From the IMG/VR virus record IMGVR_UViG_2639762779_000001, positions 1 through 64,000 of that record: 64,000 bases of DNA. One strand, written 5' to 3'. The position numbers and the translations under genes are program-made. The notes beneath the pieces were generated by a model that was not told where the DNA came from, ran no database searches, and saw only the letters and a program-made list of their open reading frames with translations. The DNA is from a virus (taxonomy: Duplodnaviria; Caudoviricetes). The stretch's first letter is position 1. Every line of letters begins with the position of its first letter. Positions 700-36,944 of this stretch are shown one piece after another.

Positions 700-741
700 A
701 TGTGGACATATTCAGTGTAGCATATTAAACGAGGTTGTCAA
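700..741 (-). promoter_or_regulatory. sigma70-type promoter with conserved GTCCACAT element
   Basis: On the minus strand: TTGACA-16 nt-TACACT-6 nt-GTCCACAT. Confidence 0.75.
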
Positions 742-792
742 AAGAACAAAAAAACGGCGACCATAAAAAGCCGCCGTAACATACGAAACCGA

Positions 793-2091
793 TCAAGCAG
801 ACTGGCTTCTCCGCCAATCCCCGCCATTCGACTCCATAAACCGTTGACAGGCCCGTTCCTCCCACTCTGGCGAATCCGGAGCCTCACAATGGATCCAGCT
901 CATCACCGAAGCGGGCTTAATGCCGTTCGCGGTGATGATCGTATGCGGCGGCTCGTACGGGTTGCTGAAACTCCATTCGGATACCGCCAGCTCGTCATGT
1001 TCGGAACGGAACGTGTGCGTCTTCGCATCCGACACCGTGTATTCGATGGACGGGTCTCGACGGGCCAATTGCAAGGCGCCTTCGACCCCGCGATGCTTTG
1101 CCGCAATCCTGAGCATCGCCGCCTGTCCCACGTCAGGGCCGAGTCCGGCGAACGTTTTCTTCACCTTCTCATTCGGGTCGAATACGTCGGGTTTCGCGGC
1201 CATGAACCGTCGGTATTCCTGTTCGTTGTCGCATAATGCGTCACGCATCTGACGGTAGCGACGGGTCGGTTTCCGACCGTCCAGCAGCTGTTTCTCCAGT
1301 TTTTTGAAGTCCTTGGATTGCCGGTATTCCTTGCCGGCCTGCGGGTTCCAACCGTCTTCCTGAAGCTCATGCAACGTGTCGGCGAAAGCCATTTTGTCAT
1401 CGAACGCGCTGCCGTTGATCAGTCCACGGTCGACGTTCTTCTTGTATAGGTCGCGCATTTCATCGTTCAGTGGATTCAAGTGTTTCTCTGTCGCCGCATC
1501 ATATCGGGCTTGCTTTGTCTGGGTTCCTTTCAATGCGGCTTGGTAGCGGCGCTCCGATTCCTCACTGTAGTAGCTGCCGGCAAGTTCGTTCGGACGGAAG
1601 GGCCATCGTTCGCCCGGCTGTATTGGATCTAGCCCGAGGTCGGCAAACTCCCTGTTCGGATCCAATGCGGTTTCGAGGATATGCTGTCGGGTCTCCTCCA
1701 CCAACTGCGCATGGTCATAGGATTTCACGGGGATACCGTCGTAAGCGGCCTGCACATGGTCGGCGAGATAGTCCGCATGCGAGCCGCCCGGCGCCTGCGG
1801 GTCATATCGCAGGTTCGCGATGATCAACGGCATGTCATCGGTCTCGCCGGGTTTCGCCGGACGGGCGATGAGCTCGTCCAAGCGCCTGGTGGCGTATCCG
1901 GCGCAATCAGCGACATCCGGATCCATGATGATGTTCGTTTCTGCGGCGAGCAGCGCATTGTTCAACCGTTTCCGTTCGAACGTGGACAATGTTTCTCCGG
2001 ATGGCAGACTTTTGTTGTTCTCTTCGGCGAACTCGCCGGTCTGCGTACGCAATTGCCGTTTCGCTTGAGCAGATTTCCTGGAATCAACCAT
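793..2091 (-). CDS. hypothetical protein with conserved N-terminal leader (SRKSAQAKRQLRTQTGEFAEENN)
   Basis: 432-aa ORF; first ~30 aa match the ORFs at 30445 and 31339. Confidence 0.85.
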   Translation of the reverse strand: MVDSRKSAQAKRQLRTQTGEFAEENNKSLPSGETLSTFERKRLNNALLAAETNIIMDPDVADCAGYATRRLDELIARPAKPGETDDMPLIIANLRYDPQAPGGSHADYLADHVQAAYDGIPVKSYDHAQLVEETRQHILETALDPNREFADLGLDPIQPGERWPFRPNELAGSYYSEESERRYQAALKGTQTKQARYDAATEKHLNPLNDEMRDLYKKNVDRGLINGSAFDDKMAFADTLHELQEDGWNPQAGKEYRQSKDFKKLEKQLLDGRKPTRRYRQMRDALCDNEQEYRRFMAAKPDVFDPNEKVKKTFAGLGPDVGQAAMLRIAAKHRGVEGALQLARRDPSIEYTVSDAKTHTFRSEHDELAVSEWSFSNPYEPPHTIITANGIKPASVMSWIHCEAPDSPEWEERACQRFMESNGGDWRRSQSA

Positions 2092-2249
2092 AGTGAAGCC
2101 TCTCGGACTAATGGATAACTGATTCCAGACTACCGCTTTGAGATAAGTTGATTACGGGAAAGTCAGGAGAAAAAACCGGCTATTCCAACTTCTGTTCTTC
2201 CGCGATTCGTCATATGGTGTAAGCGATGCCTACACATTTTTCATATCAT

Positions 2250-2272
2250 AAATGTGTAAGCGTTACACATTT
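2250..2272. promoter_or_regulatory. palindromic operator-like site
   Basis: AAATGTGTAA-GCG-TTACACATTT perfect 10-bp arms; degenerate second copy at ~2217-2241. Confidence 0.5.
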
Positions 2273-2323
2273 TTTATAGGATAAGTTGTCTGAATGTTTT
2301 TTCACGAGCGGAGATGAATTGCA

Positions 2324-2500
2324 TTGACTACGCCCATAAACACAACTCTTACTGGATTCTGTTCTCGCCGTTTCTACGAACCTAGAGAAGCGGCGAACGA
2401 ACTTCGCAATTCCGAAGCCCGTCGCCAAGTCGAAAGCAAGGAATACGTTCGGAGCTTCGACAACGTTGAGGAACTAGGGGAGTTTTTCGATACCATCTAG
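2324..2500 (+). CDS. small protein resembling a RelB/DinJ antitoxin C-terminus (not in ORF track)
   Basis: TTG start after GGAG; 58 aa ending SEARRQVESKEYVRSFDNVEELGEFFDTI. Confidence 0.4.
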   Translation: MTTPINTTLTGFCSRRFYEPREAANELRNSEARRQVESKEYVRSFDNVEELGEFFDTI

Positions 2501-2618
2501 AAGCCGATAGATCAAAATGGTTCTGGTATATTCTCCGCAGAGAAGCTTTCATCGGCAACGGACATGTCCTACGCAGCCTCTTGTTCTCAGAAAACGTATC
2601 CCGCTCCGACGTTCTTCA

Positions 2619-3179: not shown

Positions 3180-3183
3180 CTGG

Positions 3184-3459
3184 CTAGTTCCTTCCGTATC
3201 CGCCGATATATCGAATCGCGTACCAAACCGCACCACACGACATGATGCCGCTGGCTGGCAGGCTGATCAACGGTGCATGCCCGCGAACCAAATTGGATAC
3301 GTCAATGATCAAACACATCAGCGCATACATGCCGAACAATACGCTGAGCTTGCCGAACACTTGGCGTGCCAGCCGGTCGTCGGATGCCAGTGTTTCGGCT
3401 CCCATCCAGCAGACGAGCATCAACAGCAGCACATGCACGGCAAGCGCAACAAAACTCAT
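3184..3459 (-). CDS. small membrane protein (3 TM)
   Basis: ATGA overlap with the upstream gene; hydrophobic segments. Confidence 0.7.
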   Translation of the reverse strand: MSFVALAVHVLLLMLVCWMGAETLASDDRLARQVFGKLSVLFGMYALMCLIIDVSNLVRGHAPLISLPASGIMSCGAVWYAIRYIGGYGRN

Positions 3460-4407: not shown

Positions 4408-4419
4408 ATGCCGCTCCGG

Positions 4420-4812
4420 TCAGGCGATGAGCTGCAGCAGGCTTGTGTCGGCCGGGATGCCGTCGCTGGTGATGCTGTCGTACTGCGGGTCGCGGTTGGG
4501 TGCGATATCAAGCTCGGTGCGCGGCAGTTCCACGTTCGGGCCCAGTTCGTTGCGCAGATACTTGTATGCGCCTTGCGGGTCGAAGATCCAGTTTTCCGGT
4601 TGTGGCGGAATTACTGCACCGTATACGCGGCCGATGGTTCTGTTGGCGAGCTTGAATACGCCTTGGAATCGTCCGTTGATGACTTCGATGATCATGCGGC
4701 CGTCGATGTTTTCCGGGAAGTTCGGGGTGTTGTTTTTTACTCCGATGTTGCCGATGAATCGGCTTCCGTTCTCGAACGTGTGGGTGACGCGGTAGCGCTT
4801 GTTGTATGCCAT
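4420..4812 (-). CDS. hypothetical protein
   Basis: AAGGAG RBS; preceded by a GTCCACAT element. Confidence 0.8.
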   Translation of the reverse strand: MAYNKRYRVTHTFENGSRFIGNIGVKNNTPNFPENIDGRMIIEVINGRFQGVFKLANRTIGRVYGAVIPPQPENWIFDPQGAYKYLRNELGPNVELPRTELDIAPNRDPQYDSITSDGIPADTSLLQLIA

Positions 4813-4835
4813 GATGGCTCCTTTTTTGTTTTTTA

Positions 4836-4864
4836 TGTGGACAGTTGTTGTGGATTGTGGATAA
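4836..4864 (-). promoter_or_regulatory. DnaA-box cluster (one perfect TTATCCACA plus two degenerate) overlapping a GTCCACAT element
   Basis: TGTGGATAA at 4856-4864, TGTGGATTG at 4849-4857, TGTGGACAG at 4836-4844. Confidence 0.45.
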
Positions 4865-4868: not shown

Positions 4869-5687
4869 TCAGTGCGGCGTGGGGAACGATTCGCCGGCCG
4901 AGAACTTCAACTGGCGGAGAGGCTTGCCCTTACGCCACTTGTTCCACGCCTTGATGGTCAAGGCGGCGATGCGTACACGGTTGTCGCGTGTGGAACGTCC
5001 CGCCTTGTGAGGCTGGGACATCAACGTGTTGCGCAGTATGAGGATCGGATCGTCGGCTTGCAGGTTCGCGCCGCTGACGAGGCTTATGAAGAACCGGTTG
5101 GCCGCATCGGTGTCGATGTGCGCGAACGTCCACCAGAGCGAGGCGAACATGCTGCTGGTCAGCATGTCACCGGATTGGCTGCGGAACGCACGGCTGGCGG
5201 CGAGCACGTCGGCCAGTTGCGGCGTCTGGTCGATGAACGCGATGATTTCCCCGCGCGTGGGTTTCAGATCGTTTTGTGCGGCGGCTTCCATGCCCAGCTG
5301 GTCGGCCAGATATACGGCGCGCGCCAGTGAAGCGAGCTGAGTGGAGTTCTTTTCACCGCGAAGCGTGAGCACGTCGCCCAGGGTGCGGGTTTTGCCGCTG
5401 TCCATAGTCTGCTGGGTTTCGTCCTCCAACCCTCGGATCACGAGCGTGGTCAACGGCTTGTCGGCGGCGATGACGGCGAGCAGTCGATGCTGGCCGTCCA
5501 ACAGGCATCCGTCTTTGCCGAATTTGATGGCCTCACCGTTGAACCGCCATTCGCCGTTGCGCATTTCGCGAGCGAACATATTCACGTTGTCGCGGCTGAT
5601 ACGCCGGTTGTTGACGTTTTCGCCGAGCATGGTCTTCGCTATGTCCGGGGTGATGGTTTCCACCTTGGCGGTGATTTTCTCTTCCAT
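4869..5687 (-). CDS. ParB/Srx-fold (DGQHR) domain protein
   Basis: NNRRIS...NGEAIKF...LLDGQHRLLAV motif; start re-assigned to MEEKIT. Confidence 0.75.
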   Translation of the reverse strand: MEEKITAKVETITPDIAKTMLGENVNNRRISRDNVNMFAREMRNGEWRFNGEAIKFGKDGCLLDGQHRLLAVIAADKPLTTLVIRGLEDETQQTMDSGKTRTLGDVLTLRGEKNSTQLASLARAVYLADQLGMEAAAQNDLKPTRGEIIAFIDQTPQLADVLAASRAFRSQSGDMLTSSMFASLWWTFAHIDTDAANRFFISLVSGANLQADDPILILRNTLMSQPHKAGRSTRDNRVRIAALTIKAWNKWRKGKPLRQLKFSAGESFPTPH

Positions 5688-5712
5688 AATCAGTTTCCTT
5701 TTCTCCTGCGGA

Positions 5713-7053
5713 TTAGATTCCGGCCGTATAGTCCTGTGGCATGTCCTTGAACTTGCTGTTGCGTCCGAGGAATGCGAGATGGAATGTTTCGGTCGGACCG
5801 TTGCGATGCTTGGCCATGATGATGTCGGCCTCACCGGGACGGTCTTCCTTGTCGTATGCGTCGGGACGATGCACGAGGAACACCACGTCGGCATCCTGTT
5901 CGATGGAACCGGATTCGCGTAGGTCGCTCATCTGCGGCACCTTGTCGGCGCGCATTTCCACGTTGCGGTTCAACTGGCTAAGAATCACGACCGGCACTTG
6001 CAGTTCTTTCGCCAACAGTTTGAACTGGCGGCTGAAATCACTGACCTCCTGCTGACGGTTCTCGGTCATCCGTCCGCTGGACATCAATTGCAGGTAGTCG
6101 ACGACCACGAGCTTCAAATCCTTGGTTTCCTTCAACCTGCGGCATTTGGCTCGAATGTCCGGGATTTTCAGATTCGCGGAATCGTCGATATACAGCGGCT
6201 TCTCCTCGAGCTTCTTCCACAGGTCGTTGACCGCATCCCAACGTTCGTCGGTCATCTGCGTCGGATCGCGGAACACGTTCAACGGAATGTTCGTTTCGGC
6301 GGCGAACAGGCGTTGCGCGATTTCCTCGCGGCTCATCTCCAGACTGAACACGACCGAGCACATGTTGTCGTGGATTGCCGCATGCCTTGCGAAGTCCATT
6401 CCCAACGTGGACTTGCCCATTGCGGGTCGGCCGGCCACCACGATCATCTGTCCGGGTTGCAAACCGTGCGTCACATCATCGATGTCACGGAACCCGGTGT
6501 GAACACCCTCCTCGATTTCACCCTTCGCGATCTTGTCGAGATGATCGAGCATGTCCGTGGACACCGTGTAGATATCCCGGTAGTCAGTGCTTGAATCATC
6601 GTCCCCGATGTGGAACGCCTCATCCAATGCCGCGCCGATGATGCTGTCGGTTTCCGCGTCGGGCGTGTAGCCAAGCTGCGTGATCTTGGTGCCGATGCGC
6701 ACGATGTCGCGGCGCTTAGCCGTGTCCTTGACCATGCCCGCATACACGCTGACGTTGGAAGTGGTGGGTGCCGAATCCACGAGCTTCGACACGTAGTCGA
6801 TGCCGCCCACACGGTCAAGCATCTTGCGTTCGTTCAACGTGCTGCACAGCAGGGTGACATCCACGTTGCCGTGCTTGTCGTTCAGCTCGCAGATGGTCTG
6901 CCAGATGGTTCGATGATTCGGCTGGTAGAAGTCGTTTTCGGTGAGCTTCTGCCGTGCTTCGTCAACGGCGTCGCGTGATTGGAGCATAGCTCCGAGTACG
7001 GTGCGTTCCGCATCATCCTTGTGCGGTGGTTCCTGGTTGAAGATGTCGCTCAC
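5713..7053 (-). CDS. dnaB: replicative DNA helicase
   Basis: AERTVLGAML N-domain, Walker A AGRPAMGKS, VVDYLQL, SQLNR, DLRESGSIEQDAD, AKHRNGPT; GTG start with GGAGG RBS. Confidence 0.97.
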   Translation of the reverse strand: MSDIFNQEPPHKDDAERTVLGAMLQSRDAVDEARQKLTENDFYQPNHRTIWQTICELNDKHGNVDVTLLCSTLNERKMLDRVGGIDYVSKLVDSAPTTSNVSVYAGMVKDTAKRRDIVRIGTKITQLGYTPDAETDSIIGAALDEAFHIGDDDSSTDYRDIYTVSTDMLDHLDKIAKGEIEEGVHTGFRDIDDVTHGLQPGQMIVVAGRPAMGKSTLGMDFARHAAIHDNMCSVVFSLEMSREEIAQRLFAAETNIPLNVFRDPTQMTDERWDAVNDLWKKLEEKPLYIDDSANLKIPDIRAKCRRLKETKDLKLVVVDYLQLMSSGRMTENRQQEVSDFSRQFKLLAKELQVPVVILSQLNRNVEMRADKVPQMSDLRESGSIEQDADVVFLVHRPDAYDKEDRPGEADIIMAKHRNGPTETFHLAFLGRNSKFKDMPQDYTAGI

Positions 7054-7424
7054 CGATCCGCCTCCGAATCCTGTTGGAGACGCTTCAGTTCCGCCTCTTG
7101 CCGACGCAGTGATGCGATTTCCCGTTCGATCCAGGCAATCCGTTTTTGCCTGCGCTCCGCTGTGGTCAGGGTCTCCTCGCACTGACACCATCGTGCGATG
7201 CATCTTTCCACACGCTTGTAGCCGATGATTTCCGGGCCGATTCCTCTATCGCGGAAAATCACCGAGGGGCTGTCTCCGCTCTCATATCGGGCGATGGCAT
7301 ATTCTCGGAACTCGGAAGTGTAGTAGATTTTTTCGCCGTTGGAGCTCACGTTCTTCACTACCTTCGGCAGCGTGAGAAGATAGTCGATGGTCTTCTTGTC
7401 GAGACTGATTGATCGCGGTAGCAT
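7050..7424 (-). CDS. HTH domain protein (IS3-OrfA-like fold)
   Basis: YTSEFREYAIARYESGDSPSVIF...RCIARW plus a coiled-coil tail; coupled to dnaB. Confidence 0.7.
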   Translation of the reverse strand: MLPRSISLDKKTIDYLLTLPKVVKNVSSNGEKIYYTSEFREYAIARYESGDSPSVIFRDRGIGPEIIGYKRVERCIARWCQCEETLTTAERRQKRIAWIEREIASLRRQEAELKRLQQDSEADR

Positions 7425-9048: not shown

Positions 9049-9075
9049 GCTGGCGTTTCCTTTTTTTCTCTTTTT

Positions 9076-9164
9076 ATGTGGACTCATTCAATATAACATA
9101 TATCTGTGAAGATGGGGGTAGGGGGCAAAATCGGAGTGTCGCGTTACAGTGAAAACGTCCACAT
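9076..9164. promoter_or_regulatory. divergent pair of GTCCACAT promoters
   Basis: Minus: TGT-TATATT-6 nt-GTCCACAT (9076-9083); plus: TACAGT (9145-9150)-6 nt-GTCCACAT (9157-9164). Confidence 0.7.
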
Positions 9165-9301
9165 AAAACAAAACAGGAAAACGCAATAACCACAACGTCT
9201 GATACGACCTGACACCATCCAAGGCAACAAAAGACCGTTACCTCAGCAGACGATAAGTCGATTGAACGGAAACCGTTAATTGCGAAAACGGAGAATGCAT
9301 C

Positions 9302-9688
9302 ATGCCAACGCAAACGCAACCCCAAAACCCAATCAAAGACGAAGACCGGATCGAATACATCGACAGTCACATCGACTTCCTATTGGGCGCCAAGTCGACA
9401 TTCGTCCGCAACATCGGGCTCGGCACCATCGCGCACGATGAGGCGGTCATGCGCCTGCTCAACAACATCGACATCATGATCTCCAGCGAGGAAGCCGACA
9501 GGGACGTATGCCGGTTCAACAGCGGCGCAATGATGCAGAGCATCCCACCCAAGAGCCGCAACTTCCAGCCGAACCTCGACCAACGGGAAAGCAATCTGCG
9601 AGCGGACGGATATGACGAGACCATGGTCAGCAGCGACCGCCAGCTGTATGCAGGCCAGTCCATCGGACTCAGCATCCTCAGCCGATAA
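9302..9688 (+). CDS. hypothetical protein
   Basis: GGAG RBS, 128 aa, GC3-biased. Confidence 0.75.
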   Translation: MPTQTQPQNPIKDEDRIEYIDSHIDFLLGAKSTFVRNIGLGTIAHDEAVMRLLNNIDIMISSEEADRDVCRFNSGAMMQSIPPKSRNFQPNLDQRESNLRADGYDETMVSSDRQLYAGQSIGLSILSR

Positions 9689-26229: not shown

Positions 26230-26273
26230 GACACCAAGTATAATTGATGGTGGTTACAGGAGGTGATTCCCAT

Positions 26274-27518: not shown

Positions 27519-27734
27519 GTTCGTCCCGCTAACCTCATCGCAAAACCTAACCAAACACACGACCATGCAAGACCATCGCCCGCGTGAACGCGGGTGCGGT
27601 AGAGTCCTCGGACACGGGGAACCAGCCTATGCGTAAGACCAACGGACACCACGGTGCCCAAGGCGGCAGGGCGCAGCCCGCGAAGCCACCACCTTCAGGT
27701 GGTGCGTAGTTCACTAAACTGGAATCGTCCACAT
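27519..27734 (+). ncRNA. predicted omegaRNA (reRNA): scaffold to 27714 plus guide from flanking DNA
   Basis: ~200-nt non-coding structured segment between the tnpB stop and the right-end TCAC; 5' boundary uncertain. Confidence 0.7.
27715..27734 (+). promoter_or_regulatory. GTCCACAT promoter (-10 TAAACT) separated from its upstream region by the IS
   Basis: TAAACT-6 nt-GTCCACAT, same spacing as the other copies. Confidence 0.6.
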
Positions 27735-27754
27735 AGATAAAAAAAGGAGCCATC

Positions 27755-27889
27755 ATGGCGAAAAACGACAAACCAGAACTGCCTCCGTTCGCGGACTTCA
27801 TCAACAGCAACGCGCCACTCATCGGAGCCATCATCGTCATTCTTTTCATAATCGCTGTCGCATGGAGCGCGATCAGCAGCCTCTTCTAA
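27755..27889 (+). CDS. 44-aa single-TM protein (not in ORF track)
   Basis: AAGGAG RBS; MAKNDKPELPPFADFINSNAPLIGAIIVILFIIAVAWSAISSLF. Confidence 0.7.
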   Translation: MAKNDKPELPPFADFINSNAPLIGAIIVILFIIAVAWSAISSLF

Positions 27890-27899
27890 GGAGCGGGCC

Positions 27900-28880
27900 A
27901 TGGCAGGAAGAAGAGGCAAAACCGGAATCACCATCGCCGGAGTGTTCGGCGGCGTGGCGATCATACTCATCACCATCATCGTCATCATCCAGACCGGAGC
28001 ATGGGCGTTGGTGGCACCTCAATTCGGGTTGACTCCCATCACCAGTATCAGCCAACTGCTGCCAGGGGAGGATTCGATGCGGAAGGCGAACATCGGACTC
28101 GGGTTGAAGAAGCCGACTTTCACGACACCGGACAACAGCGGCGGTTCGACCGCGACGCCGGATACTTCGACGGGGGATAGCCTGACCACGAACGGTCTGA
28201 CTCTTCCCGCCGCAGCCTCCAGCCCGTTGAGCATCAGCGACGCGATTACCGCTACGGAACAACTCGAAACAGCAGCCCCTCATCCCAAGGGATACAATCG
28301 CGCCGAAGAGTTCGGTGACTGGCAGAACAGTGACCAACTGTGCGGCTACGGCACCACGCGAGACCTCATCCTCAAACGAGACATGAGCAACGTGGTCATG
28401 AATTCCAATTGCAAGGTCCAATCCGGCACGTTGAACGACCCATACACGGGAACCGTCATCAATTTCCAGAAAAGCGTGGTCAGCAAAGGCAAGACCGTAA
28501 GCGGTGACAGTACCGCCGTGCAGATCGACCACGTGGTCGCGTTGAACGATGCTTGGGCTTCGGGACTATGGAAGACCGACCGGAAGAACGACCGTGTGAA
28601 GTACGCGAACGATCCGGACGTGCTGCTCGCCAGCCAGGGTGATGCGAACAATGCGAAAAGCGAGGGCATCAACCTGTATAACGCCGGTGTGCCGAAGAAA
28701 TCATTGGGACGGTGGACGGCATCGACCCCATCCGTATGGCTGCCGTCGAACACCGGATACCAGTGCGACTACATGGCGAAGCGCGTATACATCAAGCAGA
28801 AGTATCGGCTGTCGATGAGCAGTTGGGAGAAATCGGAGACGTTGGCTTTCCTGCGGCAATGCCAGACATCAGGCCGCTAA
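27900..28880 (+). CDS. membrane-anchored extracellular HNH nuclease (DUF1524 family)
   Basis: N-terminal TM; YNRAEEFG, TRDLILKRD, DPYTG, QIDHVVAL..AW, ANDP, NNAKS motifs. Confidence 0.88.
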   Translation: MAGRRGKTGITIAGVFGGVAIILITIIVIIQTGAWALVAPQFGLTPITSISQLLPGEDSMRKANIGLGLKKPTFTTPDNSGGSTATPDTSTGDSLTTNGLTLPAAASSPLSISDAITATEQLETAAPHPKGYNRAEEFGDWQNSDQLCGYGTTRDLILKRDMSNVVMNSNCKVQSGTLNDPYTGTVINFQKSVVSKGKTVSGDSTAVQIDHVVALNDAWASGLWKTDRKNDRVKYANDPDVLLASQGDANNAKSEGINLYNAGVPKKSLGRWTASTPSVWLPSNTGYQCDYMAKRVYIKQKYRLSMSSWEKSETLAFLRQCQTSGR

Positions 28881-29144
28881 CTGGGAATTTTCTGGGTTTT
28901 CCGAATTTTCTGATGTTTCCGGAATTTTATCGGCTAGTTTGATTATCAGGATGCTTCGCACAAGTTTTCCAATCACGCGGGGCATCCTCCTCGGTGGCAA
29001 TCCTGTTGGATTCTCCTAGTGCGGTCTTCCCTTGTGGACTCTTTGGGGTGGCCGCACTTTTCTTTGCTGTTTTCCCATTCTTTTGACGGAACATGTTATA
29101 GTGAATATGTCCACATAGTGATAATCGGAAAAAGGAACCCAACA

Positions 29145-29423
29145 TTGACCGAAACCACACCGGTTGAAAACCTCGGCGACTTCATCAGCCGAGTGAAGCC
29201 AGAAACAGTCATCAACCTGTTCTTCAACACCGAAGACGGATTGAAAAGAATCCCGCCCGTCCTGTTCGGCAATCCGACCGCCGAACAGCTGAAGAACAGC
29301 AAATACCTCAAATCCCAGATCATCTCGAGCCGCAAACACTACTGCACCGTTGACATCACCAGCGGCTGGAACGTATACATCGACAGCGTGTTCGATCCGA
29401 ACCAATACGAACTGAAAGCCTGA
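29145..29423 (+). CDS. hypothetical protein
   Basis: TTG start after AAAGGA; behind TATAGT-6 nt-GTCCACAT (29097-29116). Confidence 0.7.
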   Translation: MTETTPVENLGDFISRVKPETVINLFFNTEDGLKRIPPVLFGNPTAEQLKNSKYLKSQIISSRKHYCTVDITSGWNVYIDSVFDPNQYELKA

Positions 29424-29427
29424 ACCC

Positions 29428-30001
29428 ATGCAAACACTCTCCAAGCAGCGTCGCGAGGAACTGCGGACAATACTCCTTTTTTTTTCTGATTCCGCTCATG
29501 CTGCTTTTCCTGCTCATGCTGGTCGCGGGCGTATACATGTTTGCTCTTGACGTTCGAACCAAGTCGCTGTTTGAACTCCTCATAGCGCTCATCGTTCTCG
29601 GACAAGCGCTTGTGAGCCTGGTGTTTCTGAAAAAAGGCTTTGACGTATACGTGTATACCCGATGCTCGTACGAGGCTCGTGACCTGGTGAAAGCCAATCT
29701 TCTGGAACTGGTCACTTGGATGGTTTCCGAACCGAGATTCGGGTCCAATGTTGAGGCTCGTGAAGCTCAGGATGAGGCCCGGCGTTGGCTGGAGGAGCAT
29801 GCCGACAAGCTGGCGGAACCGTTCGAGAACATTCTGGATGAGTTGAATGCCCTATTGAACCTGATGGAGAAGATGGATTCGACCGGCGAATATTATGAGT
29901 GTTTTACCCGGTTCACCGATGAGATGCTTTCCCGTCCTTCCCGTTGCGGGAGGCTGGATGCCGAATACCGGTTGGAGATGTCCGGACTGGCTGGGGCTTG
30001 A
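29428..30001 (+). pseudogene. membrane protein frameshifted at a T9 tract (or assembly error)
   Basis: ATG 29428 joins ORF 29498..30001 if T9 (29477-29485) is T8: MQTLSKQRREELRTILLFFLIPLM... Confidence 0.55.
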
Positions 30002-30015
30002 AAACAGAATAAATA

Positions 30016-30038
30016 TGTTATACTGAGAATGTCCACAT
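30016..30038 (+). promoter_or_regulatory. extended -10 promoter with GTCCACAT
   Basis: TGT-TATACT-6 nt-GTCCACAT. Confidence 0.75.
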
Positions 30039-30064
30039 AAACAATCGAAGAGGAAGCCAAAACC

Positions 30065-30427
30065 ATGACATACTCAGACACCCTGCTCACCGTCGAACAC
30101 CAGACAATCGTCCACACCCAGCATGAACTCGAACAGGAACAGGAATACGAGCAGCAGCTGCAGGACGCGCGCAACGGACTGGGAGACCTTGCTCTTCTGC
30201 CAGAAGCCAACCCAAACAAGCTCGACAGCTACGTAAGCCTGCCCAAGCAAACCAAGTTCAACACCTGCTCCCACGGCCATCTCTACAAAGAAGGCATAAA
30301 AACGCGCATGACCTACCACGATGACGGCAGCGGGGACTGGGTGCTCTGCAGCGATGACCCTGACTACGAGCAATACATCATGGCCGGAAACCCGACACAC
30401 GTTCCAGCAAACCCACTCAACGCCTGA
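30065..30427 (+). CDS. hypothetical protein
   Basis: GAGGA RBS; first gene after the promoter. Confidence 0.6.
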   Translation: MTYSDTLLTVEHQTIVHTQHELEQEQEYEQQLQDARNGLGDLALLPEANPNKLDSYVSLPKQTKFNTCSHGHLYKEGIKTRMTYHDDGSGDWVLCSDDPDYEQYIMAGNPTHVPANPLNA

Positions 30428-30444
30428 ACAGAAAGAACACGATC

Positions 30445-31332
30445 ATGTCCAACAAATCCGCACAAGCGAAACGACAACTCCGCAACGAGGACGGCACGTT
30501 CGCCAACGAGAACAAGAATGCAGGACTGCCATCCAACGACATGATTCAACATGCGAAATCATTACTGGACTCGAAGTCCGAAGCGGAAGAGAACGTGTTG
30601 ACGAGTCCGTTTCTCGCTATGAGCGAGCGAGTTGATTTATGTGAACGGTATCTTGCCGGAGAAGTCGAAGATACAGACGGGACTCTCGAATACCTGACCA
30701 ACCAGGCCAAAACGATTGAAGAGCGTAACGATGGGTCTCAAGTGCTTACTGACACTTGGGATGATGCACGTGACGAGGATATCGAATGGGCAACCCGTCA
30801 ATTCAATGAATTGCATCAAGATTACCCACTAGAACCCGAAGAGGTAATCAAAGCGAAGAGGGCATACCAGGATGGAACTCTTGCATCCTTGGATCTTACA
30901 CACTGCCAAGTGATGGACGCAGCAGTCGGCCGGTCAATAGGCCCATTGCTACCGGATCCGACATATTCCTCCATCAAGGAATCTCTTTCTCGTGAAATGG
31001 ATAAACCTGTTGCGATGTATGCAAATGTTGCCGATAGATTCTCTTATAGTGTTCAAAATAGTGTCGCACGCCCCGGTGAACCTTGCTGGCATACGCCGCA
31101 AGGCTATGTAAGCATGACTTCTTATCACGCGATCCTCGATGATGGGGGACCGGCATCAGATCGGTATTTCATCTACGTCAACGGAACCGACGAAGACCGC
31201 CGTGAACTTTCACAACATTGGGATGATCGTGACTGGCTTCGCGGACGAGCCGATGAATGTGAACCGGAAGCAACAGGTCGAGCGACAGATTTGTATGTGA
31301 CCACTTATCCGGAACCGGAATACAGGGAGTAA
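30445..31332 (+). CDS. acidic hypothetical protein with conserved N-terminal leader
   Basis: Starts MSNKSAQAKRQLRNEDGTFANENKNAGLPSNDMIQ. Confidence 0.85.
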   Translation: MSNKSAQAKRQLRNEDGTFANENKNAGLPSNDMIQHAKSLLDSKSEAEENVLTSPFLAMSERVDLCERYLAGEVEDTDGTLEYLTNQAKTIEERNDGSQVLTDTWDDARDEDIEWATRQFNELHQDYPLEPEEVIKAKRAYQDGTLASLDLTHCQVMDAAVGRSIGPLLPDPTYSSIKESLSREMDKPVAMYANVADRFSYSVQNSVARPGEPCWHTPQGYVSMTSYHAILDDGGPASDRYFIYVNGTDEDRRELSQHWDDRDWLRGRADECEPEATGRATDLYVTTYPEPEYRE

Positions 31333-31338
31333 GGGAAA

Positions 31339-32091
31339 ATGGATTCACGTAAATCAGCTCAAGCAAAACGACAGCTTCGTACTACGACTGGCGAATTCGC
31401 TAACGAGAACAAGAATGCGGGACTTCCCTCCAACGACATGATTCAGCGTGCCTCCAAATTGTTAGCGAAAAGCTCGGCGACCGTTGATGAGCCGATCATC
31501 AAGCCCTCCGTGAAGTCGGAAGGCTACATGGGATCCACCGCCATCACCGGCGGCAAATACGATGCCAGTCGCACTCCGGCGGAAAACGTGAAACTCATGC
31601 GAGCGGACATCAAAGCGTTGCAGAAGAACGGTGAACTGCCGAAGGATTGGAAGATCGGCGTCCGTACGAACACGAGTTCCATGAATTGGAACGCGCGCTT
31701 CACCATCCAACTGCCGGAAGGCGAATCCTCCACCTATGTGCCGACCCACGCCGAATATCTGGCTGCGGACGAGGAAGACCGGATTATCGGTCCCGAGCAT
31801 AAGGCAGGTCGAGGAATCATCGAAAACCATGGCGGAAGCATTTCCACTGAGGATTGGGATGAGACAGCGCGCCTCATCAACCAGAAAATCCGGAATGGCG
31901 AACAACTATCCACCGCGGAACAGGCCTGCGTCATCGAAACCCCGAAAGTCCGCAACGCGAAGAAACTCTGCCAACAGGTAGGCGAACAGTACACATATCA
32001 GAACAACAACGCCATGGTCGACTACTTCGACACGGACGGATACATCACCGTACGAGCAGTGACCGGAATCAGGAAACCGGAAAAACAATGA
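31339..32091 (+). CDS. LPD29-like polyvalent-protein domain with conserved N-terminal leader
   Basis: Leader, then KLMRADIKAL...KIGVRT and C-terminal YTYQNNNAMVDYFD, recalling LPD29. Confidence 0.75.
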   Translation: MDSRKSAQAKRQLRTTTGEFANENKNAGLPSNDMIQRASKLLAKSSATVDEPIIKPSVKSEGYMGSTAITGGKYDASRTPAENVKLMRADIKALQKNGELPKDWKIGVRTNTSSMNWNARFTIQLPEGESSTYVPTHAEYLAADEEDRIIGPEHKAGRGIIENHGGSISTEDWDETARLINQKIRNGEQLSTAEQACVIETPKVRNAKKLCQQVGEQYTYQNNNAMVDYFDTDGYITVRAVTGIRKPEKQ

Positions 32092-32468
32092 GTGAACCAG
32101 TCCAAAACTTCAACCAGTCGATTCACGTCAAAGGAGCCAAGGAGACTCATTACCCGGTTCCGGGAACCTTGATGCTATGGGGTGACAACTGGACGCTGTT
32201 TGATTGGATTCGTCAGAACACCGACTACAACACGGATACCGAAACGGCAACCGTTGATGCTGACATGTTGGATCGGCTTCACGAATACGCATCCGGCATA
32301 GCCAATCAGAGGGGACGGCGTGACGCACGCCGTGGAGAGGCCGCCTGCATCGTAGAAGGTGTAGAAGCGGTGCAATCCTATCTACGCCGTCACCCAGATT
32401 TGGCATTGGAATTCGCGGTAATCCACTTGGAATCGCATCCGTCCGTCTATGTCAAGGAAGAAGTCTGA
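32088..32468 (+). CDS. hypothetical protein
   Basis: ATGA coupling. Confidence 0.7.
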   Translation: MSEPVQNFNQSIHVKGAKETHYPVPGTLMLWGDNWTLFDWIRQNTDYNTDTETATVDADMLDRLHEYASGIANQRGRRDARRGEAACIVEGVEAVQSYLRRHPDLALEFAVIHLESHPSVYVKEEV

Positions 32469-32470
32469 CA

Positions 32471-33019
32471 TTGGTTGAGAAAATCAACTTGCAACAGGAA
32501 GCATTGAACGCTTTGACGGATACTGCTCTCAGCAGCGAGAAGCCGGGGCAAGCGTTCATCAAAGGCTATTGCTCCCACGCCTACCGTCAACCCAGTCAAG
32601 AGGAGGAGCATGCCGCAGCCGTCATGATGGCGAGGCGCATACGCTCCATCTTCCATCTGGAGGAACCGGACGAAGATGATCTGGTCGGCCAATGCGCATG
32701 CATCTACCGGGATATTCAAACCAGCCTGCATGATGCCTACGACCGGTTCAAAGCCGAAGACGAGCGGCAACTCGTGGAGATTACCGACTACATCGGCCGC
32801 AACTGCCATGAGCTGGAGGGATGCGCCGTCATCTTCACCTGGAAAGGCGAAACGAAAGCCGGAACGCTCCAATACAACGGCATGAGCAATCTCAGCATCC
32901 GCGGATTGGACTATGACACGGATTACGTGCTGGGAGTCTGGCCGGACGGTTCTGTGCATAGCGTCAACAAGAACATATACGACTTGCATGTGTTTGCCAG
33001 CAAAAGGGACAACAGATAG
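32471..33019 (+). CDS. hypothetical protein
   Basis: Tightly packed operon ORF. Confidence 0.7.
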   Translation: MVEKINLQQEALNALTDTALSSEKPGQAFIKGYCSHAYRQPSQEEEHAAAVMMARRIRSIFHLEEPDEDDLVGQCACIYRDIQTSLHDAYDRFKAEDERQLVEITDYIGRNCHELEGCAVIFTWKGETKAGTLQYNGMSNLSIRGLDYDTDYVLGVWPDGSVHSVNKNIYDLHVFASKRDNR

Positions 33020-33021
33020 GC

Positions 33022-33438
33022 ATGGAGACATATTGGAATCCAGCCACGAGGAAAAATGGGCTGTCCGATAAGAACGGCCGTGGTGTATATGCGAGAGAAC
33101 ATAAGCCACTACTCGATAAAGAAATCGCCAAAGTCCGCGAAAAATACGGTAACAAACTGGCCGAGGTGACGTTCGACGAAACAGCACCAAGACAGTTGCG
33201 GAATCGTATCGTCACCGCACCGGTGCAGGTCATCGAACACGATAGGGGCTCATGGTGGGAGCGGACTATCACCGCACGCATCACCGACGGTTCCCTGATT
33301 CCCGTGATTCTCGACCACGTGTACTGGAACTGGCCGGCGGACAGTCCAGCCCACATCGGATTGAACGGCATCAAAACAATTCATCTCATCAACCAGCAGC
33401 AGAAGAAGGAAACAGAGTGGAATACTCACATCCGTTGA
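33022..33438 (+). CDS. hypothetical protein
   Basis: Tightly packed operon ORF. Confidence 0.7.
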   Translation: METYWNPATRKNGLSDKNGRGVYAREHKPLLDKEIAKVREKYGNKLAEVTFDETAPRQLRNRIVTAPVQVIEHDRGSWWERTITARITDGSLIPVILDHVYWNWPADSPAHIGLNGIKTIHLINQQQKKETEWNTHIR

Positions 33439-33734
33439 CCGACGAGGAAGCCAAAACGTTCTTCAAGAACGGGGTGGAGGAGCAGTATTCGCTCACAGCC
33501 AACCCGCAACTGGCAGGCCCCAGCCGATTGTTCGACGAATGGATTGCCGACCACGACCGGCAACTGTTGGAACGGGTCAAATCCGAAGCCACCGAACGAA
33601 TCGGCATGGAAATCAAACTCGAACACAAGACCGGCATGCATACGCGCACGGAACCGTCACGCGCATACATCCAAGGCTGCAAAGCCGGTAAGGAACTTCT
33701 GCTTGAAGCGATAACCGCGGCAGCCGAACACTGA
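33417..33734 (+). CDS. hypothetical protein (phage-like FDxWIAxHD motif)
   Basis: GTG start after AAGGA. Confidence 0.65.
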   Translation: MEYSHPLTDEEAKTFFKNGVEEQYSLTANPQLAGPSRLFDEWIADHDRQLLERVKSEATERIGMEIKLEHKTGMHTRTEPSRAYIQGCKAGKELLLEAITAAAEH

Positions 33735-33757
33735 TACAACGTCACAGGGAAAAAATT

Positions 33758-34123
33758 ATGAAGCAGTATGTCGATTCTTTGAAACAGATCGCGGAAAAAC
33801 ACGAATGGAAGCAGGTTTCCGAAACCGAACACTCCATCACCTATTCGCCTGACGGCATGGACGGTTGGGCGTTCAGCGGTATGAACCTCGAATACGCGCA
33901 GCATCGCCTCGCGTTCTTCCGTAAAAACCGGTTGATCAGCGAAATCAAACTCTACGACCTGCAACTGGCCGAACAGATTATCGACGGATACATGGAAGGC
34001 AGTTTCGTGCCCAGTGGTTTCATTTCCTTGGATACGACCATGCTCCAATGGTGTGAACAAGTGGAAGCCTCCTATCAAGGACAATCCACCGATACGACGG
34101 AGAACGAGCATGGCGAACAATGA
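33758..34123 (+). CDS. hypothetical protein
   Basis: AGGGA RBS. Confidence 0.7.
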   Translation: MKQYVDSLKQIAEKHEWKQVSETEHSITYSPDGMDGWAFSGMNLEYAQHRLAFFRKNRLISEIKLYDLQLAEQIIDGYMEGSFVPSGFISLDTTMLQWCEQVEASYQGQSTDTTENEHGEQ

Positions 34124-34532
34124 CAGCATCGAACCGTTCACCATGCTCGGCGGAATCCTGTACCTGGACGAAACCACACTATTGGACGGGTTGACCGCCA
34201 CAGCCTGCCGGCAGATAGGGCAAATACGTCGGAAAGCCGTAGCCGCCCACTTGGCCGGAGAACAGAAAACCGTCATCTCCTGCGCCAAACAGATCAGCCG
34301 TGCCGTAGAAGCGGACAAGCGTCGTCGCGAACGGCAGGATTCCAGAAAAGGCCATCCCACGCCGAAACGGAAAACGGTACGCAAATCAAAGGATCCCAGT
34401 GTGGAGTCCGAGGTGGAATACCGGCATTTCAGGGAACAGTTCCTAAAGGAAGTCAACGATCCGAAGAAAATACGCGAAGCCGACCGGCTCGCATTCCTCA
34501 GCGGTACGCAAATCATTCTCGAAAACAACTAG
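34110..34532 (+). CDS. hypothetical basic protein
   Basis: Start re-assigned to MANNDS (GGAG RBS). Confidence 0.7.
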   Translation: MANNDSIEPFTMLGGILYLDETTLLDGLTATACRQIGQIRRKAVAAHLAGEQKTVISCAKQISRAVEADKRRRERQDSRKGHPTPKRKTVRKSKDPSVESEVEYRHFREQFLKEVNDPKKIREADRLAFLSGTQIILENN

Positions 34533-34556
34533 CGGAAAACAGAAAGGGAAAAAACC

Positions 34557-34655
34557 ATGAAGCATCCAGTAAGAACACCACTCCTCATCATCCTCGGACT
34601 CATTATGACGGCAATCATCGCCGTCGCTGCCTGTCTTGCAAAAGATCCTGACTAA
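34557..34655 (+). CDS. 32-aa hydrophobic peptide (not in ORF track)
   Basis: MKHPVRTPLLIILGLIMTAIIAVAACLAKDPD; AAGGGA RBS; fills the operon gap. Confidence 0.5.
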   Translation: MKHPVRTPLLIILGLIMTAIIAVAACLAKDPD

Positions 34656-34660
34656 AAAAA

Positions 34661-35515
34661 ATGACCCGATATCACAGTCGAGCCGAACGGGCAGCCGACC
34701 TGTTGCAGTCGCGTCGTTCCACAGTGGATTCCGTTGCCAAGCAGACCGGACTGCCCGTTGACATCGTCCGACAGATCAATGCTCCCATCGCCAAGAAACG
34801 AGCGGAACAGGATGCAGTGGATTCAGCGGAACGAAGTATGAGGCAAGCCGAGGCGAAGATACTCCGAGAACAGTATCCATGCCCACTCTGCACGACAGGA
34901 CATGCGGAACCACATGACTGCGACACGTTTCTCCCCATCGGATTCATGCACGGAGGCGAACACGACGGACAAATGGACGGCTTCTGGTGCCACCCGTACT
35001 TCTGCTCCTGTTCGAACCAACGATGCATCGCCTGCAACGTTTTCCCCAGCGAAAGCAGAGAGGAAGCCGTCGAACGGTTCTGCGCCGGAGACTTCGCCCA
35101 CGAAGATGATTTCATCGAACTGAAAACCGGCAAACGTTACCAATACTCGCGATACGGCATCGAACAGCAAATCCTCCGATACCTAGCACATTGGAGCGCG
35201 GAACAAGTCAAAAGGCTCGGCTTCGACCCGAAGCTCGTGGACACGTTGGCCATGCAACGCGCATTGGATCGCATGGGCAGCAAATACGTTGACGTGTTCG
35301 ACACGACGCTACTATGCCCCAACTGCGGAATGAAAGGCGAATACCGGAAAGCCATCAGTCCAATCACGCACACGAAGACATGGTGGCGGGTTGGCTGTCC
35401 TTATTGCAAAACCAGAACCCGATACTCGTTCCCCAGCCAGAAAGAAGCATCGGAAGCATTCGAGACAGGCAAGTTGGAGAAGAAGCCAGCAATACTACAG
35501 GAAGGAAAACGTTGA
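34661..35515 (+). CDS. HTH plus two Lar-like Zn-finger domains (candidate restriction alleviation)
   Basis: CPLC...CSNQRC...FPSESREEAVERF and CPNCG...VGCPYC...FPSQKEASEAF. Confidence 0.6.
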   Translation: MTRYHSRAERAADLLQSRRSTVDSVAKQTGLPVDIVRQINAPIAKKRAEQDAVDSAERSMRQAEAKILREQYPCPLCTTGHAEPHDCDTFLPIGFMHGGEHDGQMDGFWCHPYFCSCSNQRCIACNVFPSESREEAVERFCAGDFAHEDDFIELKTGKRYQYSRYGIEQQILRYLAHWSAEQVKRLGFDPKLVDTLAMQRALDRMGSKYVDVFDTTLLCPNCGMKGEYRKAISPITHTKTWWRVGCPYCKTRTRYSFPSQKEASEAFETGKLEKKPAILQEGKR

Positions 35516-35970
35516 GCAATTTCTACAAGGCGGGCGCAGCCGCCATGACCTCGAACAAAGACGATTGGGAAACACCTCAAGCCTTGTTCGACCAGTTGGA
35601 CAAGGAGTTCCACTTCACTCTCGATGCCGCCTCAAACGACCAGAACGCGAAGTGCGAACATCACTACACGGCTGAAAATAGCGGTCTCGAGCATTCATGG
35701 GGGGGAGAGACGGTTTTCTGCAATCCTCCCTACGGTCGGAACATCGGCGATTGGATTCGCAAAGCCTCACAGGAAGCCAGCAAGCCGGATACGCTTGTGG
35801 TCCTGTTGGTTCCCGCACGCACTGATACCCGTTGGTTCCAGAACTATATCCTGCATCGTGCGGAAGTCCGGTTTTTGCCCGGCCGTTTGAAGTACGAGGT
35901 GGATGGGCAGGCCGGTGAAGCGGCGCCATTCCCCAGCATGGTCGTGATTATGAGAACAGGAGAGAGATAG
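35512..35970 (+). CDS. phage-type N6-adenine methyltransferase (Dam-like), orphan
   Basis: DDWETPQ, FTLDAAS, VFCNPPYG, LVPARTDT, APFPS motifs. Confidence 0.92.
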   Translation: MSNFYKAGAAAMTSNKDDWETPQALFDQLDKEFHFTLDAASNDQNAKCEHHYTAENSGLEHSWGGETVFCNPPYGRNIGDWIRKASQEASKPDTLVVLLVPARTDTRWFQNYILHRAEVRFLPGRLKYEVDGQAGEAAPFPSMVVIMRTGER

Positions 35971-35973
35971 CGT

Positions 35974-36919
35974 ATGCGCTCCACCGCCGACCTGGTGAAA
36001 GCCCAGAAGAACAAGGCCGACAGTTTCTATACCACAGAGGACATGGTCGAAAAGGAACTATCCCACTACACCGATTCGCTATCGGGGAAGACGATTCTCT
36101 GCAATTGCAATGACGGCGACTGGAGCGCATTCGTCGCATGGTTCCTCGCAAACTCGGAGACTACAGCTGGAGAAACTAATCAGCGTCAGCCACACAATGG
36201 ACGGCGGACTCTTGGGCGAACACGGGAAACTGTACACATGGGCCGTTCCCGATCAGCCACCCAAGATCAAGGAACTCGAAGAGGACGGCGACTTCCGGTC
36301 AGTCGAATGCGAGAACCTGCTGCAGGAAGCCGATGTTGTATGCTCCAACCCGCCGTTCTCCCTTTTCCGGGATTACGTTGACCAGCTTGTCAAGCATTCT
36401 TCGAAGTTTATAATCGTGGGCACCTTGAACGCGGTGACCTATCGGAACGTGTTCCCGCTAATCCAGAAGAACCTCATCCACTTCGGCGTCAGCGTTCACG
36501 GGGGGGGGCGTGCGTTCCATGTACCAGATGATTACCCGTTGGAAGCCGATTCCTGCGGCATAACGGAAGACGGCAGGAAATACATCAAAGTCACCGGCAT
36601 CCGATGGTTCACGAATCTGAACGCCGATATCCCGTTCTTCGAACAACTGGAACTAACCAAAACATATGCAGGCAACGAAGCCTCATATCCAAAATATGAC
36701 GGGTTCGACGCGATCAATGTTGACAAGAGCATTGATGTTCCCATCGATTATCCTGGCGTGATAGGTGTCCCGATTTCGTTCCTGGACAAGCTTGATCCGA
36801 CCGAGTTCGAGATTGTCGGTTTGAGTAAATACGTTCGCGGGGAAAAGGCTGGTTTTTCTGTGAATGGTGAGAGCCGGTACGTGCGATTGCTGATTCGTCG
36901 TGTTGCTCCAAAGAATTAA
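35974..36919 (+). pseudogene. EcoRI-family adenine methyltransferase, split by a +1 frameshift near 36155
   Basis: Frame 1: KADSFYT...ILCNCND; frame 2: GDFRSVEC...CSNPPFSLF...YDGFDAINV...GVPISFLDK. Confidence 0.8.
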
Positions 36920-36921
36920 TA

Positions 36922-36944
36922 TGCTATACTGGATATGTCCACAT
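36922..36944 (+). promoter_or_regulatory. extended -10 promoter with GTCCACAT
   Basis: TGC-TATACT-6 nt-GTCCACAT; TTGCTC 16 nt upstream. Confidence 0.75.

Follow-up and report, generated by a model that had tools for sequence, protein, structure and literature searches.

What reads a short sequence that stands, almost unchanged, at the start of one operon after another on a large mobile element? The question was raised by a DNA stretch of 64,000 nucleotides filed as a virus (Duplodnaviria; Caudoviricetes) in IMG/VR record IMGVR_UViG_2639762779_000001 (positions 1 to 64,000; called the window throughout). A sequence-only reading of it had described eight intergenic copies of GTCCACAT as an element-wide promoter signature and had suggested a single repressor or activator, a fixed initiation sequence or host DnaA as the agent behind it. 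Here, we identify the window by its sequence as the Bifidobacterium breve megaplasmid pMP7017 and the eight sites as copies of a promoter motif already published for this plasmid. Conservation points to 24 bp of the motif, from −15 to +9 around the predicted transcription start, as the block under purifying selection, and the promoter-leader cassettes built on it (about 30) are confined to one plasmid family. We tentatively read the downstream part of the block, −6 to +9, as an asymmetric operator over the transcription start for a plasmid-encoded regulator, a reading to which we give slightly less than an even chance.

The window sites are copies of the published pMP7017 motif

Positions 27000 to 38000 of the window matched the reverse strand of NZ_KM406416.1 (B. 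breve JCM 7017 megaplasmid pMP7017, 190,178 bp) with 100% identity. The viral record behind the window is a 140-kb piece of this plasmid filed as a provirus, and the window differs in length from the RefSeq record by one base. Positions outside the window are given on the plasmid record and indicated as record.

A 34-bp motif covering the −10 box has been described for pMP7017 (Dineen et al., 2024; PMC10832533, used here in excerpt). It came from highly expressed genes of established, exponentially growing plasmid carriers, and 13 more copies upstream of start codons brought the total to 19, which were predicted to drive 56 genes, ~24% of the plasmid. The motif was interpreted as "likely a transcription factor binding site" of a presumed pMP7017-specific regulon; it precedes comparable genes in related megaplasmids and was reported to be absent from bifidobacterial chromosomes, and the paper names no regulator for it. 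A full-text literature search with motif strings returned no relevant paper besides this one.

The window sites share with the published motif the sequence, the plasmid, the AWAYATGYTATACTGAATATGTCCACATAAAAWA stretch overlapping the −10 box and the position ahead of many operons. The AWAYATGYTATACTGAATATGTCCACATAAAAWA sequence with the −10 box inside it was matched, seven of the eight sites having the −10 in register and five (700, 9076, 29109, 30031 and 36937) having the full block. Presence ahead of comparable genes in related megaplasmids and absence from chromosomes were likewise recovered. The eight sites are copies of the published motif and in this sense already known. The present scan shows no difference in kind, counting 27 in-register and 4 leader-type copies against the 19 in print. 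Beyond the published description, the selected block was narrowed to −15 to +9, the promoters were found to have no −35 element, leader-type copies lacking a −10 box were recognized and several potential readers were excluded.

A 24-bp block around the predicted start site is conserved

A full copy consists of five parts: an extended −10 element (TGnTATACT), a fixed 6-nt discriminator (GAATAT), GTCCACATA, an A-rich leader, and a Shine-Dalgarno sequence with a start codon, the latter located ~30 nt downstream. The leader is short and unstructured, and the G of GTCCACATA lies at the predicted transcription start, which is numbered +1.

In a logo of 92 unique sequences, information extends from about −21 to about +12. 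The plasmid scan, the logo and the footprint described below were all selected with positions −12, −11, −7 and +5 to +8 forced, which inflates these columns, and +1 was restricted to purines in the logo. Among the unforced positions, T−15 was kept in 79, G−14 in 86, C−8 in 86, G−6 in 90, A−5 in 82, A−4 in 85, T−3 in 78 and T+2 in 82 of the 92 sequences. At the right-hand edge the forced T+8 was found in 92/92 and A+9 in 88/92, and immediately around the start the frequencies were lower (A−2 67/92, T−1 65/92) with a pyrimidine at −1 in 85/92 and, within the purine restriction, 81 G and 11 A at +1. The sequence TATGT-CC-ACATA forms a 5-2-5 palindrome whose left arm is kept in 65–82 and whose right arm is kept in 88–92 of the 92 sequences. 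No −35 position exceeded 0.31 bit in this logo, i.e. there is no conserved −35 element, and a two-hexamer promoter scan of positions 27000–38000 called none of the four motif promoters in that interval.

As an unbiased check on the forced columns, five plasmid sequences were searched with the pattern TGNTANNNTGA, which ignores the core. Of its 101 matches, 61 lead into the exact core at the set spacing and 26 into variants differing only at +1 to +5, the other 14 being unrelated. C+6, A+7 and T+8 were present in all 87 motif-bearing matches. The start region thus tolerates R-N-Y-Y, and the ACATA part is close to invariant.

A footprint was obtained from 15 orthologous promoter groups common to pMP7017 and the B. 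longum megaplasmids. Mean identity was 0.51 upstream of −22, 0.89 at −15 to −7, 0.83 at −6 to −1, 0.95 at +1 to +9, 0.53 in the leader (+10 to +30) and 0.70 in the coding sequence. Because the unforced positions −15, −14, −13, −9, −8, −6 to −1 and +2 also lie far above the flanks, this pattern of conservation indicates that the block under purifying selection is the 24 bp from −15 to +9.

Sites in the window

The window contains nine exact matches to GTCCACAT; 100 dinucleotide-preserving shuffles gave a mean of 2.37 (sd 1.57, maximum 7), and no shuffle reached nine. The eight copies listed in the sequence-only reading were all recovered at the same coordinates and on the same strands. The additional ninth copy, 26674–26681(−), lies within the tnpB frame of an IS200/IS605 element, without a −10 box and without a leader. 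The claimed spacing also stood: a TAnnnT hexamer (TACACT, TATATT, TACAGT, TAAACT, TATAGT, TATACT, TATACT) ends exactly 6 nt before the G at seven of the eight sites, the exception being 4835(−) with TCCACA in register. TG at −15/−14, which had been proposed for most sites, is present at five of eight, the leader end AAAAAGGAGCCATCATGGC is common to 4835 and 27727 as described, and every one of the eight sites is co-oriented with the next gene. At seven sites a Shine-Dalgarno sequence and start codon follow 28–36 nt after the G, within the distance of ~60 bp or less upstream of translation starts given for the published copies. The leader is longer at 9157(+), where the first start with a Shine-Dalgarno-like sequence is TTG 9280 (53-amino-acid (aa) frame) and the annotated gene, the first long frame, begins at 9302. 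The sites, with the open reading frames (ORFs) behind them, are as follows.

699–722 (−): motif block TGC TACACT GAATAT GTCCACATA, predicted +1 at the G at 707; ATG 673 begins a 93-aa ORF (392–673), followed by 1–381, with cas6e-casA-casB past the window start.
4834–4857 (−): core-only copy, GTCCACATA with A-rich leader and no in-register −10, also conserved in three B. longum plasmids; located within the dnaB operon, following ORF 4869–5894, with ATG 4812 starting a 130-aa ORF (4420–4812).
9075–9098 (−): motif block TGT TATATT GAATGA GTCCACATA; ATG 9048, 220-aa ORF; head of the operon containing dnaB (5713–7203).
9142–9165 (+): CGT TACAGT GAAAAC GTCCACATA, the divergent partner 81 bp from the 9076 site; weaker −10, no TG, longer leader, first long ORF 9302–9688.
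27712–27735 (+): CAC TAAACT GGAATC GTCCACATA, with a weak upstream half; ATG 27755, 44-aa ORF (RefSeq annotation, record 37326–37460), then a DUF1524/GmrSD_C gene (27900–28880).
29094–29117 (+): TGT TATAGT GAATAT GTCCACATA; TTG 29145, 92-aa ORF.
30016–30039 (+): TGT TATACT GAGAAT GTCCACATA; ATG 30065, 120-aa ORF; head of a long plus-strand operon reaching Dam and EcoRI-like methylase genes (35314–36919).
36922–36945 (+): TGC TATACT GGATAT GTCCACATT; ATG 36970, 259-aa DUF2786/DUF7168 protein.

The back-to-back pair 9076/9157 is also present in B. longum plasmids. Pfam matches place the IS200/IS605 element at 25813–27518, between the partition genes and the 27727 site, with tnpA at 25813–26229(−) and tnpB at 26244–27518(+); more copies of the same family interrupt related plasmids at differing places. 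In the operon headed by the 30031 site, the EcoRI-like adenine methylase is spread over two overlapping plus-strand frames, 35974–36381 matching profile positions 2–57 and 36110–36919 matching positions 118–303, and the gene is therefore split or frameshifted.

Copies on the complete plasmid and confinement to one plasmid family

The claim that the signature is element-wide held well beyond the window: the 140-kb piece carries 20 copies versus one for the reversed control, and the complete pMP7017, which was assembled from annotated stretches for a whole-plasmid scan, carries 32 exact cores. A TAnnnT hexamer lies exactly 6 nt upstream of 24 of them. Four others have an A-rich leader and a Shine-Dalgarno sequence with ATG and no in-register −10 (record 60373, corresponding to window 4835, as well as record 107051, 147856 and 157281), and the remaining four are intragenic or without a leader. 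Three more promoters carry one-base variants of the core, AGTCACAT, GCCCACATA (before ssb) and GTCTACATA. In total there are 27 in-register promoter copies plus 4 of the leader type, and each of them points in the direction of the gene that follows. Four B. longum megaplasmids with ~82% DNA identity contained 20–27 exact cores each, compared with 2–5 for the reversed control.

At record 120557 a full cassette, including the Shine-Dalgarno sequence, has no ORF behind it and points into an array of 18 tRNA genes, divergent from a replication gene. At record 147856(−) a core with an A-rich tail directly follows a hairpin with an 8-bp stem, with neither a −10 box nor an ORF; a strong cassette diverges from it 88 bp away, and at the corresponding position in the B. 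longum plasmids the core precedes a 12-codon frame.

Outside the plasmids, 80 of at least 139 matching loci in IMG/VR were considered; every genuine match among those listed has the promoter context of the pMP7017 family, the rest being chance matches without the block. The 14-base pattern TANNNTGANNNNGTCCACAT occurred once each in nine of 151 genomes of the probable host genus and 17 times on one 190-kb plasmid, and the 12-mer GTCCACATAAAA occurred once each in eight of 401 genomes of the wider actinobacterial order, compared with seven control matches. The 151-genome genus is taken as the probable host genus because the plasmid IS3 element finds an 82% match in its centre genome, which also has a TTATCCACA oriC-like cluster at the start of its single contig; a search of genome contigs with the IS200 transposase returned only Rhodococcus, Arthrobacter and others, and no Bifidobacterium. 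The motif is thus far from being equally common at host promoters, with nine single matches in 151 genomes, and the cassettes are confined to one plasmid family. One of these nine matches is a lone cassette, TTATACTGAATGCGTCCACATA, at 31885–31905(−) of a 98-kb chromosome-type contig, where it precedes an uncharacterised 306-aa gene near genes for a DUF4143 ATPase and a melibiase; that genome has no second motif-like copy.

What reads the block

The sequence-only reading had left open a zygotically induced regulon with one repressor or activator and a fixed initiation sequence. A promoter family with a fixed start sequence and operons co-signalled over the whole plasmid are supported here as well as in the literature, while no single repressor could be tied to the motif. 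The preferred reading starts from the two halves of the block. RNA polymerase with the housekeeping sigma factor accounts for −15 to −7 but not for the near-invariance of −6 to +9, and these 15 asymmetric base pairs would most readily be understood as the binding site of one sequence-specific DNA-binding protein of the plasmid family. By occupying the start site, such a regulator would hold down about 30 strong promoters at once, in a plasmid-wide regulon comparable to the global kor regulon of IncP plasmids. Promoter activity would persist at steady state and might increase whenever the regulator ran short or was taken away. The promoters are not silent at steady state, since the motif was found among highly transcribed genes of established carriers (PMC10832533, in excerpt). 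As expected of an operator, the same short site stands at many promoters of one plasmid and overlaps the −10 box or +1. A reader of DNA is favoured over a reader of RNA because positions −6 to −3, upstream of the start, are conserved, and a sequence-specific reader is favoured over polymerase kinetics because +5 to +9 are strict.

Several observations weigh against this operator. The forced columns, +5 to +8 among them, are inflated, with the core-independent search as the unbiased check, and the start at G is a presumed one: two public RNA runs (contigs) cover the stretch and give no 5′ ends, and a raw-read run with the same species label contained no plasmid reads. The site has no convincing two-fold symmetry, the left arm being variable (T−3, A−2 and T−1) and the right arm not, and the spacing of its arm centres, 7 bp, is small for a helix-turn-helix (HTH) dimer. 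The published high steady-state transcription would be explained by a strength element no less readily than by a repressor site. Furthermore, no result obtained here links either of the two candidate HTH proteins discussed below to the motif, and the repeats in their own promoters look more like their operators.

It is also conceivable, although we consider it unlikely, that no dedicated regulator exists and that the block is an intrinsic high-expression cassette, reused before many operons, in which host RNA polymerase works at a very tight extended −10 and the −6 to +9 segment tunes open-complex stability, start-site choice and promoter escape. The discovery of the motif among highly transcribed genes at steady state (PMC10832533, in excerpt) would follow naturally, as would the end of the conserved stretch at +9, which is about the length of the first RNA-DNA hybrid and may reflect it, and the pyrimidine at −1 with a purine at +1 (the latter restricted by selection), which is the usual start-site rule. 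The whole unit, including the Shine-Dalgarno sequence, heads the tRNA array without an ORF, which suggests copying as a unit, and a lone copy is found on the chromosome-type contig of another genome. However, polymerase kinetics tolerate many initial sequences, and 9–15 near-invariant base pairs at about 30 loci with flanks at ~50% identity are more than expected from them. C rather than the consensus A is kept at −8, the four leader-type copies keep GTCCACATA without an in-register −10, and the best promoter should serve host chromosomes too, which it does not.

The leader-type copies could also be taken to indicate that the signal is read in RNA, as a shared 9–12-nt 5′ tag (GUCCACAUAAAA) that sets stability or translation through an RNA-binding factor of plasmid or host origin, or through a small RNA complementary to it. 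The G at the expected +1 would place the tag at the very 5′ end, and the copies lacking a −10 box at record 60373, 107051 and 157281 keep the core, the A-rich leader, the Shine-Dalgarno sequence and ATG. In addition, the leaders are unstructured and accessible: among 84 leaders the mean z-score of the minimum free energy was +0.18, and on average 2.1 of the first 9 nt were paired. The conservation of G−6, A−5 and A−4, upstream of +1, lies where RNA cannot be the reader. The 84 leaders showed no conserved structure and no excess of structure compared with shuffles, no Rfam covariance model matched in the window, and no crRNA-like guide carries the sequence. Pairing to the 16S rRNA of the probable host genus was at chance level, 357 of 500 shuffles doing as well. 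Taken together, we regard a signal read in RNA as distinctly improbable.

The last alternative, likewise raised in the sequence-only reading, is that host DnaA recognises a box (xxGTCCACA) in the core at the start site and would thereby link a quarter of the plasmid genes to the replication state of the host. Seven types of DnaA box (A–G) are described for the B. longum oriC, including TTATCCACA (type A) and TTGTCCACA (type B) (PMC2430713, legend of Additional file 4). GTCCACA corresponds to positions 3–9 of type B, so that the motif shares seven of nine positions with it, and most strong copies read ATGTCCACA, which matches at eight of nine. At 4835, the copy has a perfect TTATCCACA 13 nt away and adjoins ATCCACA, as is also the case in three B. 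longum plasmids, and DnaA has no occurrence in the text of PMC10832533, which does not consider it for the motif. However, the first two box positions are not kept: TT precedes GTCCACA in only two of 50 copies on pMP7017, and AT is preferred (14 of 50). Box positions 4 (T+2) and 6 (C+4) vary in the natural variants GCCCACAT, GGCCACAT and GTCTACAT, and T+8 and A+9, which lie outside the box, do not; on the other side conservation runs back to G−6, A−5, A−4 and T−3, outside any DnaA box. The profile expected of a DnaA box, with conservation confined to the 9-mer and T at positions 1, 2 and 4, was not seen, A being found at −2 in 67 of 92 sequences. None of the eight window sites contains an exact 9-mer of the seven listed types (seven or eight of nine positions matched). 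On the whole plasmid TTGTCCACA occurs only at record 108568, in a promoter-type copy, and at record 70378, within a gene; perfect boxes of the seven types number 4–8 per plasmid and are not enriched. In one genome of the probable host genus, the oriC-like cluster contains TTATCCACA five times and GTCCACA not once, and the motif sites stand at promoters rather than at an origin. DnaA alone cannot explain the confinement of the motif to one plasmid family, and we consider this alternative very improbable.

The neighbourhood of the 4835 site deserves a description of its own. At 4849–4864(−), a perfect type A box (TTATCCACA, 4864–4856), which is the sole copy on pMP7017 (record 60351), is directly followed by ATCCACA (4855–4849) and, 6 nt further, by the GTCCACATA core, giving three like-oriented TCCACA elements within the dnaB operon. 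Three B. longum plasmids retain this arrangement, which might function independently as a site for DnaA or helicase loading.

Candidate regulators

For the preferred reading, an operator of a plasmid-encoded regulator, two HTH proteins would be candidates: an Xre-type protein (record 106877–107530, HTH_3/HTH_31) and a 184-aa protein (window 39729–40283), both of them DNA-binding-domain proteins found in all four B. longum plasmids. The intergenic region of the Xre gene has its own repeat, TTTTCTGAGT, present twice. A connection of this gene with the motif through an in-frame internal GTCCACATAAAA..ATG was discarded, as the B. longum orthologues lack this sequence and it is confined to pMP7017.

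The 184-aa protein is part of a phage-like switch at 39187–40689, in which its gene (39729–40283(−)) is followed by genes for an ImmA/IrrE-type metalloprotease (39187–39606(−)) and a zinc-ribbon protein (37751–39172(−)). Divergent from these is the gene of a 95-aa paralogous HTH protein (40402–40689(+)) sharing SERY(I/V)RDR with the 184-aa protein. Both HTH proteins match a phage "transcriptional repressor" family, and an HTH protein beside an ImmA/IrrE-type protease is kept in all five plasmids. The 184-aa gene looks leaderless (TACAAT, 6 nt, ATG), and the intergenic region between the two HTH genes holds a perfect 17-bp inverted repeat (40346–40362 and 40380–40396) flanking a −10-like TATAAC box. 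For the 184-aa protein, folding from a single sequence gave no usable model (mean predicted local distance difference test score, pLDDT, 38). A model from 11 sequences (pLDDT 60) was confident only at an N-terminal five-helix domain (residues ~8–75), followed by low-confidence sequence. This domain resembles Xre-family HTH proteins (C.BclI, ClgR, P22 c2, DdrO) at weak E-values of 0.012–0.09, and the protein had no sequence match to any solved structure in the PDB.

A more specific proposal, which we consider improbable, is that this Xre-type HTH protein and the adjoining ImmA/IrrE-type metalloprotease form a plasmid-borne repressor-plus-protease switch, with the block as its operator and the asymmetric TATGT-CC-ACATA as its binding site. 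The HTH protein would bind at the start sites of about 30 cassettes and, comparably to the mycobacteriophage stoperators, at a few intergenic copies that lack a promoter, and stress or entry into a new cell would lead to its removal by proteolysis. If so, genes for replication, recombination, anti-restriction, CRISPR-Cas and tRNAs would be released together.

Among other plasmid proteins, WhiB, DnaB, DUF4192 and DUF2786 were each missing from at least one motif-bearing plasmid and were rejected as readers. RepA was rejected as well, its eight promoter repeats reading GGTGTCAGAATTCTAAG, unlike the motif.

Comparison with known systems

In the kor regulon of IncP-1 plasmids, KorA and KorB, which are known dimeric repressors, act on palindromic operators at many promoters, some overlapping the −10 box, and place the genes for replication, maintenance and transfer of a large conjugative plasmid under joint regulation. 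The likeness lies in one short site repeated at many strong promoters of such a plasmid; in contrast to the Kor operators, the pMP7017 site is asymmetric and fixed at +1. The CUP repeats of IncN plasmids (pKM101), to which the sequence-only reading had compared the signature, bear promoters, precede anti-restriction and establishment genes and are controlled by the plasmid repressor ArdK; they are longer and confined to the leading region, whereas the pMP7017 copies span 24–34 bp and are scattered over the whole plasmid on both strands. The comparison is an analogy only, and a repressor comparable to ArdK could not be tied to the motif.

While global plasmid regulons offer the closest likeness overall, among actinobacterial elements the working of the motif would most resemble that of the operator/stoperator sites of cluster A mycobacteriophages. 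Phages such as L5 and TipsytheTRex carry >20 asymmetric 13-bp sites in promoters and short intergenic spaces, oriented with transcription, and the L5 repressor, a 183-residue monomer with a pair of domains that bind DNA (one HTH at the N-terminus plus a Stoperator domain), silences the prophage (PMC9283540, in excerpt). pMP7017 likewise is an actinobacterial mobile element with >20 asymmetric sites co-oriented with transcription (27 + 4), some of them intergenic without a promoter. The two-domain build of the L5 repressor was not seen in the 184-aa HTH protein, which in view of the weak model (pLDDT 60) is not a strong negative, and the motif-bearing genes of pMP7017, unlike those of the L5 prophage, are transcribed at steady state.

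A third comparison concerns the Deinococcus RDRM, a 17-bp palindrome near the start site of a DNA-metabolism regulon (ssb and others) that is bound by the Xre-family protein DdrO, which is inactivated by the M78 metalloprotease IrrE (PMC8533742, in excerpt). The HTH protein beside an ImmA/IrrE-type protease on pMP7017 recalls this pair, and RDRM half-sites begin with TATGY, comparable to TATGT; the pMP7017 arms, however, are 3 bp closer and unequal, and the HTH fold matches generic Xre proteins (E-values as given above).

On the only well-studied conjugative bifidobacterial megaplasmid, whose family is found in infant gut microbiomes, roughly one gene in four is marked by the motif, and these genes include a helicase, ssb, nucleases, methylases, cas genes and the tRNA array. 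The reader of the motif, once found, would explain the burden of the plasmid on its host and its establishment after transfer. Independently of the reader, the cassette is a compact strong promoter-leader unit that could serve Bifidobacterium genetics.

CRISPR-Cas genes near the window

CRISPR-guided Cascade was considered as a reader, as ATG followed by TCCACATA resembles a protospacer-adjacent motif with a seed, and was rejected. None of the 25 plasmid spacers starts with or contains the core, no repeat-like handle lies beside the core on any plasmid (the one match being a chance AAACC..CCACAT), and plasmid W03 has 20 cores, yet no CRISPR repeats and no cas7e or casA match.

The type I-E genes themselves (cas6e, casA, casB, cas7e, cas5e and cas1e) lie at record 65226–73520, just past the window start; cas3 and cas2 are not annotated, and two CRISPR arrays with 11 and 16 matched repeats hold the 25 spacers. 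One related plasmid lacks the whole cas region. On pMP7017 two unrelated genes are inserted between casB and cas7e, and both cas gene groups stand behind motif promoters, one at the 700 site of the window and the other at record 68481.

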